From: a virus | DNA: 14,733 nt | Reading direction: 5' to 3' (one strand) | UHGV virus genome: UHGV-1964037 | Part shown: positions 2,144 through 14,733 of the stretch, in pieces | Position numbering within the stretch: position 1 is the stretch's first letter | Layout: the number at the start of each line of letters is the position of its first letter | The notes under the pieces: generated by a model | Database searches by the model: none | Told to the model about the DNA's origin: nothing | Seen by the model: the letters and a program-made list of their open reading frames with translations, nothing else | Program-made: the position numbers and the translations under genes

Positions 2144-4073
2144 TTATGATGATGCCCGGCTTTCGTTAACTTTGACTGTGACCGTATCAAGCAGTACCGG
2201 ATACGTCGCTTTTGCCCCCGTGATATCTGTCAGCGTCAGCGTATCTGCTGTAAAGCCATCATTTGTCCACATCACCAGGTCAAACGCAGACTGCTCTGCA
2301 TCATCAATCACCGGCACCACTTTTTCGCTGTTATTTCCCGCAAAGCGGAAAACAACTGTATGCCAGTTATGGTCAAATGCCCCAAATGTGCCCAGTTGCG
2401 CATTCGACTCCCCCTTGTGGTACATCAGATTCAGATTTGATGCATCCGTCTGAAGGAAGAAGGACGCCAGCATGCTGTTTGCTGTCGCGCCTGACGCCCA
2501 CTGCGACACCGGCCAGTACAGACCAAAGACAAACTGACCGTTAACCAGTTCGACACCCTCCGGGATCTTAAACCGCACGGCAATTTCACCTCCCTTACTG
2601 AGAAGATTTTTTGCCTCCTCCACCGCAACAGTACGGAACATCTTCCAGGAGGTCAGTTTACCCGGCTGTTTTTCCAGTCGCAGCGCCTTCCTGCCACTGT
2701 CATCCGTCACAGTGCCTTTACCACCGGACGCATTCCACTGCTGCTCTGTCCATACACCACTGCCACTGTTCGCATCATATCCGGCCACCATTCTTGTTAC
2801 GGCTTCAGTATGACCGCCTGCAGAAGTACCTGCACCCTGCTGTTGCGTCGGACCCGCAGAGCCAGACTGTGCATCCCCCGTGGAGGCTGGCGTGGTCGCC
2901 AGCGGTGCAGACTGCCCGCTCAGGAACGGCAGCAAACGCCCGGCTCGCACCAGTATCTCTCCTGCCAGCCGATCTGAAACAATGCCTCTTCGCGCCCAGG
3001 AGCTGAAGTGCGTTTTACGATCGGCTGTCGTCCAGTTACCATTACTGCGTGACGCGGCACCATAGTATCCCGCCGTGATAATGTCCGGATCTTCTGACGG
3101 CTCGTTTGTCGGCACATTCGCACCATGCTCATCCGTCATCAACGGCACAAAGTGAATATTCTGCGCCGCCTTGCCTTTATAGCCTCCGTAAACCGCCTCA
3201 TACTGCACTGCATACTTCGCCTTCCAGTCGTACGTGGTGTCACCGCAAATCCACGGGACGCCGGACGTTGTCCCGCCAATACACTGGTCTGCAATATCTG
3301 CCAGGTCTGCACGGTATTTATTTACCATGGCAAGAAAAAGTGCATTGTGCTCTGCATGTCTCCCCGAACTGACATCTTTTTCCCCCTGCATCCAGATCAC
3401 CGACAACAGCACGTTTTTCGGATTTTTCTTCAGGGCTGCACGCGTTCTGCTGACCAGGTCACGATACAACGGTTTATCCACCCCCCACAGGGAAGAGCCC
3501 GCTGTCGCACCCGACGCCTCATTAAACGCGCCCTCTGCTCCCGCAGTAAATCCCGAATCGCCACGTCCACACGGGACAAGAAGGATCCCCGCACGGGCAG
3601 GCATAAACGGCAGCAGTTTTTTGGCCACATGCAGGGCATGCCCCACACAGCCATACTGCCCTTTATTGAGGTCTGCTTTCGGGTGATTCAGATTACTCAC
3701 GTCCTGCACATCATGCAGACAATGGTCTGCAGGAATAATGTCGTTATATGCACAGGCCGCACCGCCCGGTGTCACCGTGCTGCGACGCGCCAGTTGCTTA
3801 ATACGCGGGTCAGGACGATCATACGTATCCGGCAGCGGCAGGCCCCCCCCCAAAAAAAACCAGGTGGGATGGCCCGCCACCATCACCCGACGGTTGCACC
3901 ACCACCGGTGTGGTGACATCACCTTCCGCCGCAATGGCCTGCATCAGGGTATAGGGCGTGATGGCCACCGGACTGCCAAATGGCTGCCACCCCTCCTTCA
4001 GTTTTTGAGTCAGTCGCTCCGCAAGGTCTGACGGCGACGCCGCCCTGACCACGTCATAGTGTTTAAATGCCAT
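2144..4073 (-). pseudogene. nanS-p-like prophage esterase (DUF1737-like N-terminus plus SGNH/SASA-type esterase domain), frameshifted at a homopolymer tract
   Basis: ATG at 4071-4073 with GGGAGG RBS opens an 84-codon frame (MAFKHYDVVRAASPSDLAERLTQKLKEGWQPFGSPV...) that stops at 3819. A second frame continues from the same tract for 596 codons to 2144 and contains GRGDSGF and other esterase-like blocks. The two frames overlap at the C9/A8 run 3843-3859; removing one base joins them into about 642 codons. Size and placement (between Q and S) match nanS-p genes of Stx and Stx-like phages. Family assignment is from memory, not a search. Confidence 0.55.
3843..3859. repeat. adjacent homopolymers C9 and A8 (coding strand T8 G9) at the frameshift site
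   Basis: Plus-strand cccccccccaaaaaaaa at 3843-3859, read directly from the sequence. Confidence 0.95.
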
Positions 4074-4296: not shown

Positions 4297-4353
4297 GTCC
4301 ATAAGAAAGCCCCTCCGGAGAGGGGCTGGAGAGTGGCGCTATGTGCCATTGCA

Positions 4354-4375
4354 TGGTGCCGGGTGCCTCCCGGTG
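4354..4375. repeat. 22-bp element TGGTGCCGGGTGCCTCCCGGTG, with an exact reverse-complement copy at 14559-14580
   Basis: Exact 22/22 match in inverted orientation about 10.2 kb away. The minus-sense reading CACCGGGAGGCACCCGGCACCA holds three GGCACC hexamers and a CCGGG/CCCGG hairpin. Confidence 0.9.
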
Positions 4376-4644
4376 AGTTCAGTATCAGCACCTGAACCCG
4401 CACAGAAAGGATAAGGGTCGGTGACAAAACACCAGTTGCTGATTGCCCCTCCGCACAGGGGGATTCACCATGCCAGTTTCTTTTAACAAACTCCCCGCAA
4501 ACCAGACAACAGTCAACCGCCTGAATTGTGAGGTATTTAAAAATTTCAACGGGTAACTGATACCCTGCTAATCGCCTGATGCTTTCTTTTTCAGCAACGG
4601 GGAAGCAACAACCACCACACCCACCAGCCGCCCATTTACCACAA

Positions 4645-4670
4645 ATAAAAAAGCCTTCACTGCGGAAGGC
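4645..4670 (-). terminator. rho-independent terminator on the minus strand
   Basis: Plus-strand A-run 4645-4652, then GCCTTC-ACTGCG-GAAGGC hairpin (4653-4670). Overlaps the stop codon of the 65-aa ORF. Confidence 0.5.
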
Positions 4671-4853
4671 GTCTGTAACAACCGAACTGATAGTCTGCCA
4701 GACCCGCCATAACCAGCTGGGTCAGTATTAACTGGCAGCGTTCGCGTGAAAGGTAAGTATTCTGCGCTATCTCCCCGACTGTCGCCGGTTCGGTAACGCT
4801 TAATTCATTAAACACCACTCTGGCGGTTTCTGTCATATCCTGCTGTTTTAGCA
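4657..4853 (-). CDS. hypothetical small protein, 65 aa, possibly HTH-like
   Basis: ATG at 4851-4853 with AAGGGA RBS. Product MLKQQDMTETARVVFNELSVTEPATVGEIAQNTYLSRERCQLILTQLVMAGLADYQFGCYRRLPQ. Bracketed by minus-strand terminators on both sides, so it could instead be part of a late leader transcript. Confidence 0.4.
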
Positions 4854-4973
4854 TGTCTTTTTCCCTTTTCCGGTTAACGTGACATACCAATAACTCTTGT
4901 CTAAAAAGCCAGCAAGCTGAAAGACAGGTATTCACCACCAGCACGTTTACTGTACTGATGCGATTTCAGTCAT

Positions 4974-4995
4974 AAAAAACCCGCCAGGCGGCGGG
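4974..4995 (-). terminator. rho-independent terminator on the minus strand, about 60 nt downstream of Q (candidate tR'-like element)
   Basis: Plus-strand A-run 4974-4979, then CCCGCC-AGGC-GGCGGG hairpin (4980-4995). In minus sense the hairpin is followed by UUUUUUAU. Confidence 0.5.
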
Positions 4996-5055
4996 TTTAA
5001 GTTGTGTGGCGTAGTAACCACTCTTAACATACTGACATACTTTTTGCGGACCGCG

Positions 5056-5448
5056 CTAATCATTTTTTACTTTTTTGGGCAGCCAGTCGTCCATCTCCAG
5101 CCTTACACCCAGCATCGACAGACATCCGTCAATAAATCCTTCAGCAATCTGCATCTCAATTCGTATTGCCTTTTCGCTCTTCTTTCTTGTTCTGGCAATC
5201 TGCCTTTTTGATATGCGCAGCAGATAATGAGCTACCAGCAGCGAATACTCGTCCGGTTTTTTCTTCTTCAGGCGCGTAAGGCAGTTTTCGATGATAAGGC
5301 CGTCATCATCGCTGCAGGCCGGGCGAGGTTTAGCGGTGGATGGTAAAAGGCCTTTAAATCCAGCAGCTATCGGAGAATAGTCCACCCCGGTGTTACCACT
5401 TGCCGCCCATGCCCCCCAGCGTTCAAGAACCATCTGAATATCACGCAT
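5056..5448 (-). CDS. Q: late-gene antiterminator Q (Phage_antitermQ family, QuuD-like)
   Basis: ATG at 5446-5448 with GGAG RBS. Product MRDIQMVLERWGAWAASGNTGVDYSPIAAGFKGLLP...RLKKKKPDEYSLLVAHYLL...GVRLEMDDW matches the short E. coli prophage Q family (N-terminal MRDIQMVLERWGAWAA, C-terminal RLEMD, from memory). Positioned upstream of the late/lysis genes. Confidence 0.8.
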   Translation of the reverse strand: MRDIQMVLERWGAWAASGNTGVDYSPIAAGFKGLLPSTAKPRPACSDDDGLIIENCLTRLKKKKPDEYSLLVAHYLLRISKRQIARTRKKSEKAIRIEMQIAEGFIDGCLSMLGVRLEMDDWLPKKVKND

Positions 5449-5465
5449 CAACTTTCTCCACAAAA

Positions 5466-10799: not shown

Positions 10800-11944
10800 T
10801 TGCGCCCCCTTACCTCTGAAGGGTTCAGCGACAAATTTATGAGACTGGCCAGTAGCGCCGCGTCGTTGATGCGGTCATACAGACTTACAGCCAGCGGGGA
10901 TTCGGCTTTTGCCAACATGGGATAAAGCTGCTGCAGCCAGACCTTGTGGATTACCGACAGGTGGGAGTAAAGCACGCTGGCGTTATCTGCGGCATCGCTC
11001 AGCGTGGATGGCTTTGAAAGCAGTTTTTCCATCTGGTTAAAGGCATTGATGTATGCCTCTTTGAACTGGGCAGCACGTTTACCCGTGAAACCCATAGCAA
11101 GAAACGCAAAGCCGTCGCGGGTTATTTGATAGCAAGGTAGTTTGCGGCCTGTGCAATCGGTGTAATCACTCACCGAAAAATTGCGGGCAGTGAATGATGC
11201 GGAACATTCAAGCGTGCGGATCTTTTTCAGTACATCGTCATGACGTTTGGAGAAGAAGTTGGCAACAGCCAGGGATGAAGTAACAGCCTGACCATCAACG
11301 ATGGCAATTTCAGGTTGAGTGAGGGTTGGGATCGTAGCCATGATGGCAGCCTCCGTATGCAATGGATAACTTCCACCACCGGAAACGCCAATTTCGCTGG
11401 TGGTGAACTGAGCAGGGTTGGCGTAACCGGCGCATACGGAAACCGGCGCACCTTTCGGTGCCCCCACCCAGCCCACCATAATTTGGGTATAGCTGAGTTG
11501 TAGCAACAAAAAAGACGCTAACGCGCCAATTGTCGCCGTATGCAATTCCAGGACGCCAATCCCGACACCCGCTTTATAAGGTGCCTGAACAGTGTAACGT
11601 CCCGGAATGGCAGAATCAATGTGCTGGTGGTCCTTCACACTCAACAAAATCACGCCTGAATTTCCACAAAGGACTAAAGCACTCATGCTGGTAGTCTTTG
11701 CGAAGATAGATAACGCGCTGTGTTTCTGGCTCCCAACGAATAACATGAACATAAAGTCCTCTTCCGTCACGAAACCAGCGGTTAAGTTCCTGCACAACTC
11801 GCCCCCCACAGTCAGGTAAAGTTCTCTGTGGTTACTTACAGCCAGGTGATTTGGTAATCTGCATTCATGCCGTAACAACAGGTGTTCAGCGACGCTGACC
11901 ACCAGCTGTTGCGACAAACGGTTATTTGCCGTTAAACTATTCAT
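10796..11944 (-). CDS. Rha-domain phage regulatory protein with about 200-aa in-frame N-terminal extension of unknown function
   Basis: C-terminal 181 aa (from ATG 11339-11341, preceded by GGAGG) MATIPTLTQPEIAIVDGQAVTSSLAVANFFSKRHDDVLKKIRTLE...ITRDGFAFLAMGFTGKRAAQFKEAYINAFNQME is a clear Rha (Phage_pRha) domain. The frame stays open for a further 201 codons upstream to an ATG at 11942-11944 that overlaps the CII-like stop (ATGA). A 600-nt open frame by chance is unlikely, so the long form is annotated; the true start is uncertain. Confidence 0.5.
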   Translation of the reverse strand: MNSLTANNRLSQQLVVSVAEHLLLRHECRLPNHLAVSNHRELYLTVGGELCRNLTAGFVTEEDFMFMLFVGSQKHSALSIFAKTTSMSALVLCGNSGVILLSVKDHQHIDSAIPGRYTVQAPYKAGVGIGVLELHTATIGALASFLLLQLSYTQIMVGWVGAPKGAPVSVCAGYANPAQFTTSEIGVSGGGSYPLHTEAAIMATIPTLTQPEIAIVDGQAVTSSLAVANFFSKRHDDVLKKIRTLECSASFTARNFSVSDYTDCTGRKLPCYQITRDGFAFLAMGFTGKRAAQFKEAYINAFNQMEKLLSKPSTLSDAADNASVLYSHLSVIHKVWLQQLYPMLAKAESPLAVSLYDRINDAALLASLINLSLNPSEVRGRK

Positions 11945-12555
11945 GCGTTAGTTTCTCCACAACCAGAAGCAATCGACGCCACGACGCCCGGAGCTGCACA
12001 CTCGCGGGCGTTACTATTTTCTGGAGCGCAGAAGATTTTGTAGACCAGTGCTGCATGCTCCTGGAGCTTCGAAATTGAGAGGTACAGCTCGTCGTTAATT
12101 GCTGTCTTCTCATGCGGTTCCACTACACCGTCTTCGATTGCTGAACGAATCTGTCTGGAATAACTGCCGATCTGTTCAATGACTTCCAGCAGACGCTGGT
12201 TAATATCGGCGTTGTCCACATCCTCGACGTCAGGAAGAGACACAAAGACGCCATTTGCAGACTGCGCCACAGCGTCAGCAATGAAGTGAGTTCCACCAGC
12301 ACGTTGCAAAATCATTGCCCATCCCAGCGGGAAAATCTGATCGCCATCGGCACGAAGGCGGTTAAATAATGCGTTTTCTGTTACATCCAGCCAGTCAGCT
12401 GCTTCAGCGTAACCACCCGGCAACGCTGCGATAGTTTTTCTGACAGCTTTCACGTACCACTCAGGCTGTTTTTCTACTTTCCAGTGATGCTTACCCACGG
12501 TTAGCCTCATCGTTCTGTGGTTTCTGTTAATCGATTTATCCATTAGATTTTTCAT
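11941..12555 (-). CDS. CII-like early regulatory protein (position-based; possibly phage CP76-type CII family)
   Basis: ORF immediately downstream of cro, about 204 aa from ATG 12553-12555 (alternative ATG 12541-12543). Product ...WKVEKQPEWYVKAVRKTIAALPGGYAEAADWLDVTENALFNRLRADG... Function is inferred mainly from gene order. Confidence 0.35.
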   Translation of the reverse strand: MKNLMDKSINRNHRTMRLTVGKHHWKVEKQPEWYVKAVRKTIAALPGGYAEAADWLDVTENALFNRLRADGDQIFPLGWAMILQRAGGTHFIADAVAQSANGVFVSLPDVEDVDNADINQRLLEVIEQIGSYSRQIRSAIEDGVVEPHEKTAINDELYLSISKLQEHAALVYKIFCAPENSNARECAAPGVVASIASGCGETNA

Positions 12556-12736
12556 AAAGCTCAGGTTTAAATGGCAACCGTCCGCAAGTTCTATATGCAG
12601 CTTCTGCTGCACGTCCTTTTGGAATTAACTGGCCCGGACGGTTTCGCCACTGATAAACGGCTTCAGTTGTTATGCCGAAAAAAGCAGCAACTTTCTCAAT
12701 ACTGCCGAAGTAGCTTTCGATATCGTCAGTTGTCAT
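12536..12736 (-). CDS. cro: Cro-like HTH repressor
   Basis: 66-aa product MTTDDIESYFGSIEKVAAFFGITTEAVYQWRNRPGQLIPKGRAAEAAYRTCGRLPFKPELYEKSNG with the Cro/YdaS-type HTH signature (FFGIT..AVYQW....IP). GGAGGG RBS. Divergent from the repressor gene. Confidence 0.7.
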   Translation of the reverse strand: MTTDDIESYFGSIEKVAAFFGITTEAVYQWRNRPGQLIPKGRAAEAAYRTCGRLPFKPELYEKSNG

Positions 12737-12833
12737 ACGCCCTCCAAACTAAGTTTTATTAGATGCTAATTACAAATCTATCTTTGGTCAATAAAAACTA
12801 AGATTACTTAGCAATTCAAGAAATGGTGCTCCT
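12737..12833. promoter_or_regulatory. divergent cI/cro control region with two 14-bp operator-like palindromes and a candidate PR promoter
   Basis: CTAAGTTTTATTAG at 12749-12762 and CTAAGATTACTTAG at 12798-12811 (inverted CTAAG/CTTAG half-sites). Minus-strand promoter candidate TTGACC (12786-12791), 17 nt, TAGCAT (12763-12768) directed into cro. Confidence 0.55.
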
Positions 12834-13460
12834 ATGGAAACGGTTGGTCAGCGTATAAAAGCTCTGAGAAGAGTTACCGGAACGTCCCAGAAAGAATTGG
12901 GTAAATTTTGTGGAGTAAGCGACGTTGCTGTGGGGTACTGGGAGAAAGACATCAATACCCCTGGTGGGGAGGCACTTTCGAAATTAGCGAAGTTCTTCAA
13001 TACGTCAATAGATTACATTCTTTATGGTGCTGAGTTTGAAGGCAAACTCGTCACAAACATGCGCAGAGTTCCTGTAATATCGTGGGTTCAGGCTGGGCAG
13101 TTTACTGAGTGCAGGGCAGCAGAAGTGTTTAGTGAAGTGGACAAGTGGGTAGATACATCATTAAAGATTGGTGATAACTCATTTGCATTAGAGGTTAAAG
13201 GTGACTCCATGACTAACCCTAATGGCCTCCCAACAATACCAGAAGGCGCAACAGTGATTGTAGATCCAGATGCAGAACCTCGTCATGGAAAAATAGTCAT
13301 CGCTCGACTTGATGGAACAAACGAAGCTACAGTAAAAAAATTAGTCATCGATGGCCCTCAAAAGTTTTTAGTGCCATTAAATCCTCGGTATCCCAACATC
13401 CCTATCAATGGTAATTGCCTTATCATTGGTGTAGTCAAAGGAGTTCAATACGAACTCTAA
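12834..13460 (+). CDS. cI: CI-type prophage repressor (N-terminal HTH plus C-terminal S24 LexA-like autopeptidase domain)
   Basis: 208-aa product. N-terminal HTH (QKELGKFCGVSDVAVGYWEKDINTP), Ala-Gly cleavage site (WVQAGQF), catalytic Ser in GDSM and a Lys-Lys pair (TVKKLV), as in lambda CI/LexA. Confidence 0.85.
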   Translation: METVGQRIKALRRVTGTSQKELGKFCGVSDVAVGYWEKDINTPGGEALSKLAKFFNTSIDYILYGAEFEGKLVTNMRRVPVISWVQAGQFTECRAAEVFSEVDKWVDTSLKIGDNSFALEVKGDSMTNPNGLPTIPEGATVIVDPDAEPRHGKIVIARLDGTNEATVKKLVIDGPQKFLVPLNPRYPNIPINGNCLIIGVVKGVQYEL

Positions 13461-13514
13461 GACCTCTCTTCTCTAACTAAGGCACCGAACTAAGAAAAGT
13501 TTGGTGTTTTCTCT

Positions 13515-13543
13515 TGCCATAATAACTAAGTTAAGTTAGATTT
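13515..13543 (+). promoter_or_regulatory. candidate PL-like promoter overlapping a third operator-like site
   Basis: TTGCCA (13515-13520), 17 nt, TAGATT (13538-13543). The spacer and -10 overlap CTAAGTTAAGTTAG (13526-13539), which matches the OR palindrome CTAAGTTTTATTAG at 11 of 14 positions. Confidence 0.4.
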
Positions 13544-13650
13544 TATATCAAAGATAACGAACAGGCAGGACGCCCACGAAGTAGCCGCCTGGGGCATATA
13601 AAGTCTAGGGTGATTCGTTAGCAACAAAAAAGCGCCCTACAGGACGCTTA

Positions 13651-13662
13651 GCTCTTTAACAA
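13651..13662 (+). promoter_or_regulatory. boxA-like element GCTCTTTAACAA in the leader upstream of the 68-aa ORF
   Basis: Matches the E. coli rrn boxA core (GCTCTTTAACAA, from memory). Preceded by a small hairpin AAGCG..CGCTT (13630-13650) and followed by CAAGT..ACTTG (13677-13694). Confidence 0.4.
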
Positions 13663-13707
13663 TCTGGTCCCCATCAACAAGTAACTGATAACTTGAGGAG
13701 GTGTGAA

Positions 13708-13914
13708 ATGCACAAAACAGAACCCAAAATCGTCGCGCCCGGATACACAAATGAGGAAATTTACGAGTGGATGGCAAAGAAGCTGGCAGCTATAAACCAG
13801 CTTCGTGAAGTGCTGTCTTATCGACAGGAAACAATAGACTCCTTAAAAAAACTGGATCAGGAAATCACGGTTTTATCACAGGATGTTACTTTAGATATTG
13901 TGCAGACAAATTAG
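13708..13914 (+). CDS. hypothetical small protein, 68 aa, predicted helical/coiled-coil
   Basis: ATG at 13708 with strong GAGGAGG RBS 6 nt upstream. Product MHKTEPKIVAPGYTNEEIYEWMAKKLAAINQLREVLSYRQETIDSLKKLDQEITVLSQDVTLDIVQTN. No arginine-rich motif, so not an obvious N homolog. Confidence 0.55.
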   Translation: MHKTEPKIVAPGYTNEEIYEWMAKKLAAINQLREVLSYRQETIDSLKKLDQEITVLSQDVTLDIVQTN

Positions 13915-14320
13915 GATCCCATTCATTTTCGTCAAAATCATCAAAGTGATGAATTTGTGATCTCCAGTCTCGATAATCTAAAAATTTCTGGGCGGTTACG
14001 CTTATTTTATCAAGTGTGAGTTCATCCTGAATTGAAAGAAGAAGTTCATCAAATTTCATCTCATTAATCTGTTTTGGCATCCAGTGATGCTTCATCAGAA
14101 TAAGGTGAACCAGAGCCTTTTTCCCATTCAACTGATTATAGGGAGTGCCGAATTTCTTCCGGTGCTCATGTAAGACAAGGTCCAGAAGAGTAAGTAATGT
14201 TGCCCTTGATTCCACTTTGCTTATTTCGACTGATGACACTACCCCACTGATTTCAATGCCCCGATACTTTCCAACATTTTCACAGTGGGATTTGTACAGC
14301 GTGTAGATATTACCGGACAT
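13886..14320 (-). CDS. hypothetical protein, 144 aa, in AT-rich moron-like DNA next to cI
   Basis: ATG at 14318-14320 with AAGGAAAAG upstream. Product MSGNIYTLYKSHCENVGKYRGIEISGVVSSVEISKV...KFLDYRDWRSQIHHFDDFDENEWDPNLSAQYLK. Region looks about 40% GC against about 52% around it (by-eye estimate). The 3' end overlaps the convergent 68-aa ORF by 29 bp. Confidence 0.55.
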   Translation of the reverse strand: MSGNIYTLYKSHCENVGKYRGIEISGVVSSVEISKVESRATLLTLLDLVLHEHRKKFGTPYNQLNGKKALVHLILMKHHWMPKQINEMKFDELLLSIQDELTLDKISVTAQKFLDYRDWRSQIHHFDDFDENEWDPNLSAQYLK

Positions 14321-14335
14321 TTCTTTTCCTTTTGC

Positions 14336-14387
14336 GTTGTTGGGGATAACCAGATTAACCGAATCCTTGTTGTTGGGGAATAACCAG
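14336..14387. repeat. two direct repeats GTTGTTGGGGA(A)TAACCAG immediately upstream of the 144-aa gene
   Basis: 14336-14353 and 14369-14387, 18 and 19 bp, differing by a single A insertion, start-to-start 33 bp. In minus sense each contains TTATCCCCA or TTATTCCCCA, loosely DnaA-box-like. Confidence 0.85.
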
Positions 14388-14604
14388 GTCCACCTCGCCT
14401 GATGTGGCTAAAAGCAGGCACATAACAGCTAAGTATTTTTAACCAGAGAGAATCCTTAGCGTTGTGGTGAATGCGGCTCAGCGCACGCGGGTTAAGGTTG
14501 AGGCTGACAGTCGACCTTCTGTGGATACCCACCCGTCTGGTGTGCAACCTTCGCCAGGCACCGGGAGGCACCCGGCACCACAACTTTATGCTGTGTGTAG
14601 TCCT

Positions 14605-14651
14605 GGAGGTACCAGTTTGTACCCTTGCTTCCGGCTGGTACCGTCCTTTTT
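14605..14651 (+). terminator. terminator-like hairpin with T5 run on the plus strand
   Basis: GGAGGTACCAG / CTGGTACC(G)TCC stem with a 19-nt loop, followed by TTTTT (14647-14651). Lies about 25 nt downstream of the 22-bp element copy. Confidence 0.4.
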
Positions 14652-14733
14652 ACAAAACAGAGAAGAGCATCACCGGACGACGGGCTCATAACCCAATCCA
14701 TCCGGGCGGCTGCCACCGCAGGTGTTCTTCTCT

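Follow-up and report, generated by a model that had tools for sequence, protein, structure and literature searches.

Putative early-left control region of an N-less lambdoid prophage: operator-controlled promoter, structured leader RNA and rrn-type boxA

The closest described systems to the locus studied here are the early-left region of phage lambda, the put RNAs of phages HK022 and HK639 and the boxA sites of rrn operons, CRISPR leaders and suhB. In lambda, a leftward sigma-70 promoter (PL) lies just beyond the repressor gene and is overlapped by the left operators (OL), which are of the same family as the right operators (OR), and the PL leader carries the nutL site of the N/nut system, with a boxA about 100 nucleotides (nt) past the start. 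The lambda boxA (CGCUCUUA) is weaker than the rrn consensus, and many lambdoid phages have no N. In the N-less lambdoid phages HK022 and HK639, a put RNA stands directly after PL. The boxA consensus GYTCTTTAANA was derived from functional rrn and suhB sites (Baniulyte et al.), and boxA alone shields long untranslated CRISPR transcripts from Rho.

In this study, we report the computational analysis of positions 13,461 to 13,707 of a stretch of viral DNA of 14,733 nt (UHGV virus genome UHGV-1964037), hereafter the window, which was compared with more than 200 related prophage loci. Judged from its sequence, the window is the early region of a lambdoid prophage of the SfV/SfIV/e14/CPS-53 type. 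The segment that follows its cI-type repressor gene is probably (probability about 0.55) the early-left control region of an N-less SfV/SfIV/e14-type prophage, in which a PL controlled by the operator OL1 would be followed by a cis-acting leader RNA, here named R1, by a terminator for the opposite strand and by a boxA that would recruit Nus factors against Rho. The locus appears best described as one in which a conserved leader RNA, joined in a subset of the phages by an rrn-type boxA fused to an opposite-strand terminator, has taken the place of N/nut. This reading is built on observed sequence elements, their conservation, RNA covariation, the strand asymmetry of a hairpin and an association with reverse-oriented genes.

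The leftward promoter, its operator and the repressor-gene terminator

A first-pass annotation of the window had proposed that a third copy of an operator-like palindrome overlaps a TTGCCA-17-TAGATT promoter facing away from cI, and its sequence facts were correct. The putative PL (13514..13542, + strand) consists of the −35 hexamer TTGCCA (13514-13519), a 17-nt spacer and the −10 hexamer TAGATT (13537-13542), which agree with the consensus at 9 of 12 positions, and the predicted start is at about 13549-13550. The operator OL1 (ACTAAGTTAAGTTAGA, 13525..13540) spans the spacer and the first four bases of the −10 hexamer. With up to two mismatches allowed, the operator motif ACTAAGnnnnCTTAGT was found exactly three times in the window (12748-12763, 12797-12812 and 13525-13540) against 0.34 expected, and three or more copies were obtained in none of 200 shuffles. 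Two copies are located between cI and cro, where the motif and promoter scans placed them on both flanks of the rightward promoter PR (TTGACC-17-TAGCAT, 12791-12763, − strand) in the OR region (12748..12812), and the third is the one overlapping PL.

Comparison with related phages supported this assignment. Both OL1 and the TAGATT −10 hexamer are unchanged in phage LLS, though its repressor region is just 77% identical, and OL1 is identical among loci of the same immunity type whose −35 hexamers differ. Similarity to phages of other immunity starts abruptly at 13556-13558 (megablast and blastn), a few bases past the predicted start. This junction is shared with SfIV, SfV, SfII, PhiR29/49, ST64B, mEp237 and SPN3UB, and also with phages of Klebsiella, Citrobacter, Pantoea, Yersinia and Pectobacterium. 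A scan of viral contigs with a conserved 19-mer yielded more than 120 loci; in 104 distinct upstream sequences, 24-27 nt was the commonest distance from the end of the best sigma-70-like promoter to the R1 core. At this fixed spacing, the promoter hexamers and the operator-like repeats are wholly different between immunity types, as in TTGACA-16-CATAAT (SfV/e14), TTGACC-18-TATATT and TTGACT-17-AATAAT of other immunities. The identification of PL and OL is well supported at this level. The first-pass proposal of a repressor-controlled leftward promoter right after cI thus has strong comparative evidence behind it, with a start and a repression that are predicted from the sequence.

As in lambda, a leftward sigma-70 promoter stands behind the gene for a repressor that combines a helix-turn-helix (HTH) with an S24 autocleaving domain, and an operator of the OR family overlaps this promoter. 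The locus differs from lambda in its number of operator copies, a single strong one and a weak candidate where lambda has three, in lacking rex genes and an N gene, and in its operators, which are 16-bp ACTAAG-N4-CTTAGT-like sites.

Between cI and PL there is an intrinsic terminator for the cI transcript (13479..13515, + strand), in which a stem formed by 13479-13491 with 13498-13510 is followed by a U-rich tail. Its fold had a free energy (dG) of −15.1 kcal/mol (z = −3.7), and a terminator is present at the equivalent place in SfV, e14, ST64B, LLS and Kp4882-1. An operator half-site, AACTAAG, was noted inside this hairpin here (13479-13510) and in LLS (locus L292, about 3900-3925). It could be part of a weak second OL operator overlapping the terminator; the candidate read from the sequence (ACTAAGAAAAGTTTGG, 13489..13504) is weak, with three mismatches to the motif.

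The structured leader RNA R1

The dominant conserved feature of the leader is R1, which was not part of the first-pass annotation, nor were the cI terminator and the STnc100-like RNA described below. R1 comprises 66 nt (13556..13621, + strand); the evidence for it consists of the start of homology with phages of other immunity, of covariation and of a covariance model score of 83.7 bits. A closing helix, P1 (13556-13561/13614-13619), encloses two hairpins, P3 (13564-13566/13584-13586) and P2 (13588-13592/13605-13609). In a nearly gapless alignment of 54 distinct variants, 95.4% of the cells were paired and 10 pairs were altered on both sides (148 cells); none of 500 shuffles was as good, and slid controls gave 20-45% pairing. 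Among the variants, P1 alternates between ACGAA/UUCGU, CCACC/GGUGG and UCAUC/GAUGG, while P2 alternates between CCUGG, CCGGU, CCGAC, CCCGA, UCCGG and CCACC, with the partners changing to match. About 25 loop and junction bases are near-invariant and form the core AGGCAGGACGCCCACGAAGUAGCC and the motifs GGCAUAYGAA and GGAUGA. Given that the bases of the core hardly vary, covariation is not informative on pairing inside it.

R1 was found in single copy per phage and always in the left operon, and the covariance model gave no second R1 in the rightward operon. Full-length copies occur across many genera of Enterobacterales, including Xenorhabdus, Photorhabdus, Serratia, Yersinia, Erwinia, Pantoea and Pectobacterium, and R1 is present in 1837 of 5426 complete E. 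coli genomes (34%). The e14 element of E. coli K-12 has R1 between ymfK and ymfJ. In this strain, late SOS induction under a CI-like repressor is described for intE and for ymfJ, the gene that comes first behind R1 (PMC11002266), which is an indirect point in favour of PL/OL. The covariance model gave no match in HK022, HK639, Rac, LLS and Kp4882-1, and CPS-53 is without R1. At gathering and E-value thresholds, Rfam had no match at 13550-13700, and a full-text literature search with the core sequence found no paper. R1 is a widespread structured RNA that is apparently undescribed. Exact matches to the 19-mer core in Planctomycetota, Actinomycetota, Acidobacteriota and other phyla were rejected as unrelated to R1: they scored 18-31 bits with the R1 model and (L301, L305, L308 and others) read as protein-coding, with a reverse-strand motif GYFVGVP, apparently of a malate/lactate dehydrogenase.

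R1 shares several traits with the put RNAs, for which the comparison set consisted of HK022 putL and putR and 41 put variants. Like putL, it stands immediately behind PL in a lambdoid phage without N. The two kinds of RNA are comparable in length (about 66-74 nt), and both are made up of several helices. Two short stretches also recur in both, CGAAC(A)GGC close to the 5' end and AGGAUGA, and these were kept as a lead only. In HK639 a put-like RNA is annotated in the left operon only, as is the case of R1, so that a single left copy is no argument against a put-like role. The helix topology is different, since R1 has the closing helix P1 around two hairpins. A hidden Markov model (HMM) of the 41 put variants matched R1 only at E ≥ 0.3, and the R1 profile had no match in put. 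Homology between R1 and put was rejected, as HMMs in both directions and the covariance model were negative. By its class, R1 would be a positional analogue of putL and not a homologue.

With respect to function, the near-invariance of the loops suggests that R1 is recognised by a conserved host component. An action on elongation or termination is possible, and we put it forward tentatively; a role in stability, processing or binding is also conceivable, with similar reserve. In the latter case, R1 would not control elongation but would serve as a 5' stabiliser, as a processing signal or as a site bound by a small RNA or protein through which the half-life or translation of the PL message is set, an alternative that we regard as somewhat doubtful. 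R1 lies within about 7 nt of the predicted 5' end, like protective 5' stem-loops, and LLS does without it, both of which would suit a stabiliser. However, some 25 near-invariant bases kept across genera and immunity types exceed the needs of such an element, and the genes downstream vary, contrary to what gene-specific translational control would require. No complementary partner was found in the window, where the complementarity of the R1 core to the remaining sequence did not rise above the shuffled background.

The terminator/boxA module and the proposed mechanism

R1 is followed by a hairpin that has the features of an intrinsic terminator for minus-strand transcription (13620..13649, − strand). 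The terminator scan identified an 8-bp stem with a 4-nt loop (13630-13649) and a T run next to it, the U-run being encoded by 13624-13629. The hairpin has a dG of −11.5 kcal/mol on the minus strand versus −7.5 on the plus strand, and in 16 of 16 module variants it was stabler as minus-strand RNA (mostly −11 to −13 versus −6 to −7 kcal/mol). This asymmetry arises because G.U wobbles of the minus strand are C.A mismatches on the plus strand. In the minus sense, the hairpin is downstream of reverse open reading frames (ORFs), and in some relatives it lies within 30-40 nt of their stop codon. The fold 3' of boxA (13668-13706) was no better than shuffles (z = 0.23). Of the small hairpins said in the first-pass annotation to flank boxA, the upstream one (13630-13649) is therefore real, although it is a minus-strand terminator, and the downstream one was not substantiated.

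The boxA itself (GCTCTTTAACAA, 13651..13662, + strand) is located about 100 nt past the predicted start and, as previously proposed, is an exact rrn boxA and a conserved consensus site. It fits GYTCTTTAANA exactly, with C at position 4. By arithmetic, about 0.002 exact occurrences of the 12-mer would be expected in 2 × 14.7 kb, and no other boxA within two mismatches was found in the window, the rightward operon included. In the first set of R1 loci, a boxA-like 8-mer was present within the first 400 nt in 16 of 87, in 15 of them about 30 nt after R1. A further scan, which used the module of terminator and boxA as its key, gave 94 new loci, 78 of them with R1, and in all 78 the boxA was downstream of R1 on the same strand (at 27-675 nt). 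The remaining module loci include other types of PL leader, such as that of Klebsiella phage Kp4882-1, in which the module comes after a repressor gene with its terminator and a TTGACT...TATTTA promoter. Searching with the hairpin alone was uninformative for boxA, given its generic terminator shape; the matches lay in many unrelated contexts and about half had a boxA.

Among 16 variants of the module, GCTCTTTAA(C/A)AATC is constant, in contrast to the loop, the linker base and the sequences on either side. Of 20 architectures with boxA, 19 have a reverse ORF of 144-205 amino acids (aa) in the interval from R1 to the STnc100-like element, whereas in most of those without boxA it is shorter than 90 aa. 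The reverse genes belong to at least five unrelated families. The minus-strand terminator and the plus-strand boxA thus behave as a portable module, which recurs across leader types and unrelated reverse genes. On this comparative basis, boxA looks to be under selection. If it works, it would act without N, as in rrn operons and CRISPR leaders, and by analogy its likeliest role would be an rrn/CRISPR-like protection by Nus factors from Rho. Like the rrn, CRISPR and suhB sites, it matches GYTCTTTAANA perfectly and precedes a long RNA that is untranslated in the sense direction, with one 68-aa ORF as the sense coding in about 1.1 kb downstream of boxA. A hairpin 5' of boxA is also found in rrn leaders, where the order is boxB-boxA. 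The site described here differs from those of rrn, of CRISPR in Salmonella and others, and of suhB in its location in a phage early operon, in a function that is a prediction, and in its fusion to an opposite-strand terminator that travels with reverse-oriented moron genes.

Taken in order along the DNA, the proposed mechanism comprises a predicted transcription start, repression, a role for R1, Nus recruitment and protection from Rho. The cI transcripts would end at their own terminator (13479-13515), and leftward transcription would start near 13550 only once the repressor had been inactivated, since OL1 overlaps PL. R1 would open the transcript as a cis-acting leader, conditioning the elongation complex or the transcript. 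Transcription from PL would then read through the hairpin, which is built to terminate the opposite strand and which would stop reverse moron transcription short of PL and cI. BoxA would recruit NusB/NusE and the host Nus complex without N, and this complex would shield the PL transcript from Rho over about 900 nt of antisense or untranslated RNA, ahead of the STnc100-like RNA and the yfdP...xis-int genes.

In addition to the lack of homology with put, several points weigh against this reading. A match to the promoter consensus is, taken alone, at chance level, with four sites in the region versus 3.5 ± 1.9 expected. The association of boxA with the size of the reverse ORF (Mann-Whitney p = 2.7e-7) was calculated with a statistic that ignores shared ancestry. 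BoxA is carried by a minority of the R1 leaders of the first set (the above 16 of 87) and is missing from the viable phages LLS, SfV and ST64B, so that it is not essential to the left operon; in view of the minus-strand terminator being its constant partner, it could be hitch-hiking. Moreover, rrn-type complexes are weak on intrinsic terminators, and therefore boxA would not explain read-through of the terminator of the STnc100-like element. In LLS, PL leads straight into that element, with the same terminator and without R1 and boxA. The left operon thus needs some way past an intrinsic terminator; as LLS lacks R1, R1 is not required for this read-through, and as LLS lacks both, neither R1 nor boxA can be the sole way.

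It must also be considered that boxA might have no function on the plus strand and be the upstream flank of the terminator of the reverse moron cassette, or part of a small RNA derived from the minus-strand 3' untranslated region. Such a reading, to which we attach a minor but appreciable weight, is in line with the fact that boxA always abuts the minus-strand terminator and with its absence from most R1 leaders and from viable relatives, and conservation of the module could reflect recent horizontal spread. On the other hand, terminators need no particular upstream sequence and the same hairpin is found elsewhere without boxA; the 11-mer is an exact fit to the experimental consensus and has stayed the same where hairpin loop, linker base and both flanking sequences have changed; and it is always on the PL-sense strand, 3' of a PL-type promoter, and is not covered by any minus-strand ORF. 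Less probable still is that a boxA-Nus complex acts negatively, repressing translation of the 68-aa ORF and thereby provoking Rho termination that would damp the left operon. At suhB, a boxA within about 50 nt of the start codon represses (Baniulyte et al.), and here boxA ends 46 nt from the ATG at 13708; however, in most other modules boxA is followed by a reverse gene and not by a forward ORF, so that a role tied to the 68-aa ORF cannot explain conservation of the module.

Finally, a classical lambda-like system, in which boxA and the neighbouring hairpin would be a nutL served by an unrecognised N-like protein nearby, is highly improbable: the position about 100 nt past PL and the adjoining hairpin resemble nutL, but this hairpin, an 8-bp stem capped by a tetraloop, lies on the 5' side of boxA and is stabler on the other strand, there is no significant hairpin 3' of boxA, neither the window nor the whole left operon of its relative vB_EcoM-689R6 was found to encode a basic protein with an arginine-rich motif (ARM), the PR operon has no second site, and SfII, SfIV and SfV lack N, cII and cIII according to the published analysis (SfIV paper). 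Since the fold of 13660-13710 is at shuffle level (z = 0.23) and the only good hairpin is 5' of boxA and of minus-strand type, there is no boxB. The N families of Pfam and PHROGs are not represented among the window proteins, no ARM was found in the window ORFs or in YfdP, and the annotation of the vB_EcoM-689R6 left operon contains no N. With lambda and P22 nutL, the site shares a boxA in the PL leader at about 100 nt from the start, but it has the full rrn consensus and lacks boxB, N and nutR.

The first-pass annotation, which suggested Nus-dependent antitermination, is accordingly retained for PL/OL and for a genuine boxA and abandoned for a lambda-type N/nut system, without boxB 3' of boxA, ARM protein or nutR. 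It was right that the first downstream ORF (13708-13914) has no arginine-rich N-like motif. The N-like ARM protein that it proposed to look for beyond the end of the window was absent from the fuller relative vB_EcoM-689R6 and from the SfV/SfIV group. It also correctly stated that no nutR fits between cro and the CII-like gene, but these overlap only if the longest ORF is taken; from the ATG at 12510 there is a gap of about 25 nt, still too short.

The reading with an N-independent boxA and a cis-acting R1 can be extended, tentatively, to the proposal that R1 is a new class of cis-acting leader RNA replacing N-nut in a large group of N-less lambdoid prophages, SfV, SfIV, ST64B, mEp237 and K-12 e14 among them. 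It might make PL transcription processive through direct action on RNA polymerase or on Rho/Nus, and terminator plus boxA might be a portable insulator for reverse morons without polarity; in this complete form the proposal is less than even in our estimation. In any case, the locus gives two candidates for how N-less lambdoid phages, beyond those with HK022-type put, pass terminators and untranslated stretches. The presence of R1 in E. coli K-12 e14, upstream of ymfJ, makes it accessible to standard strains and to existing transcriptome data. If true, a boxA used without N in a phage operon would mean that host-type Nus antitermination operates in prophage early operons as well as at rrn and CRISPR loci, and the module suggests a route by which morons may insert against the direction of an operon with the downstream genes not silenced.

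Downstream elements and genome setting

The leader is followed by a 68-aa ORF (13708..13914, + strand) with a strong Shine-Dalgarno sequence, GAGGAGG. Its product is acidic and helical, a full-length member of phrog_1744 and not N-like. Next to it is the reverse-oriented moron gene (13886..14320, − strand; 144 aa, phrog_5286), which transcription from PL would cross antisense. Just upstream of this gene in the minus sense, a direct repeat, TTGTTGGGGA(A)TAACCAG, is present in two copies 33 nt apart (14337-14353 and 14370-14387), and a similar pair was seen in Klebsiella phage Kp4882-1 (locus L004, about 3090-3140). The repeat possibly serves to regulate the promoter of the moron gene.

The STnc100-like structured RNA (14431..14653, + strand) was defined by its alignment with Rfam STnc100 and stands upstream of the yfdP-like genes of the left operon. 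Against RF02076 it aligned over its full length with 38.4 bits (E = 1.7e-6), the gathering score being 47. It ends in a terminator hairpin (14605-14646) with a U-run, whose fold has −26.4 kcal/mol (z = −2.75). An STnc100-like element ahead of yfdP-like genes is also present in SfV, e14, ST64B and LLS. The element is a paralogue of the bona fide Rfam STnc100 at 4297-4502 (− strand), downstream of Q: the two copies agree fully over a 22-mer (CACCGGGAGGCACCCGGCACCA), their closing helices differ by compensatory changes, and each finishes with an intrinsic terminator. With the Rfam STnc100/PasD RNAs it shares an end-to-end alignment that includes the closing helix, the CCGGG-AGGCA-CCCGG hairpin and the terminal terminator; it differs from those next to Q genes in scoring under the gathering threshold and in its place in the early-left operon. 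From this arrangement, the window looks like an LLS-type left operon with an inserted cassette formed by R1, the terminator/boxA, the 68-aa ORF and the reverse 144-aa ORF. The same cassette is found in SfIV behind a different immunity region.

Some minor observations concern the STnc100 family. HK022 putL has the 11-mer GCGGGUUCAGG in common with the late STnc100 copy (window 4380-4395) and 10 of its 11 bases with the left copy (14485-14495); the Rfam STnc100 model gave no match in put, and the resemblance may be a coincidence. In the Rac prophage of K-12 (locus L128, 8411-8466, − strand), the small RNA KilS, upstream of kilR, scored 39 bits on Rfam DicF, below its threshold, and resembles the 3' terminator part of the STnc100-like element of the window; an STnc100-like core (GCGGUGAAU...ACACCGC) comes after KilS, directly before kilR. 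Between Q and the late STnc100 of the window (4657-5000, − strand) there are a terminator-like hairpin (about 4975-5000) and a small ORF (about 4657-4853), so that STnc100 is not immediately next to Q.

The cI-type repressor gene (12834..13460, + strand) encodes a protein with the Pfam domains HTH_3 and Peptidase_S24 (E = 9e-28) that belongs to phrog_4, transcriptional repressor. Domain and PHROG matches also identified cro, a P22_Cro family protein (12536-12736, − strand), beyond it a CII-like Phage_CP76 protein (about 11941-12510, − strand), and the Q antiterminator (5059-5463, − strand). The nearest records are Escherichia phages vB_EcoM-689R6 and vB_EcoS-569R4, with 99% identity across 12500-14733. 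Past the end of the window, the + strand of vB_EcoM-689R6 continues with yfdP, yfdQ, an HD hydrolase, xis and int, and for this reason the + strand beyond cI was assigned to the early-left operon.

Just 3' of the CII-like gene, IsrK (58.9 bits) and C4 antisense RNA (80.7 bits) adjoin at 11396-11584 (− strand), within a 382-aa ORF that is probably spurious. The same pair is found in ST64B (locus L005, 242-430), and an 'M3-like RNA' is annotated at the equivalent place in HK639.

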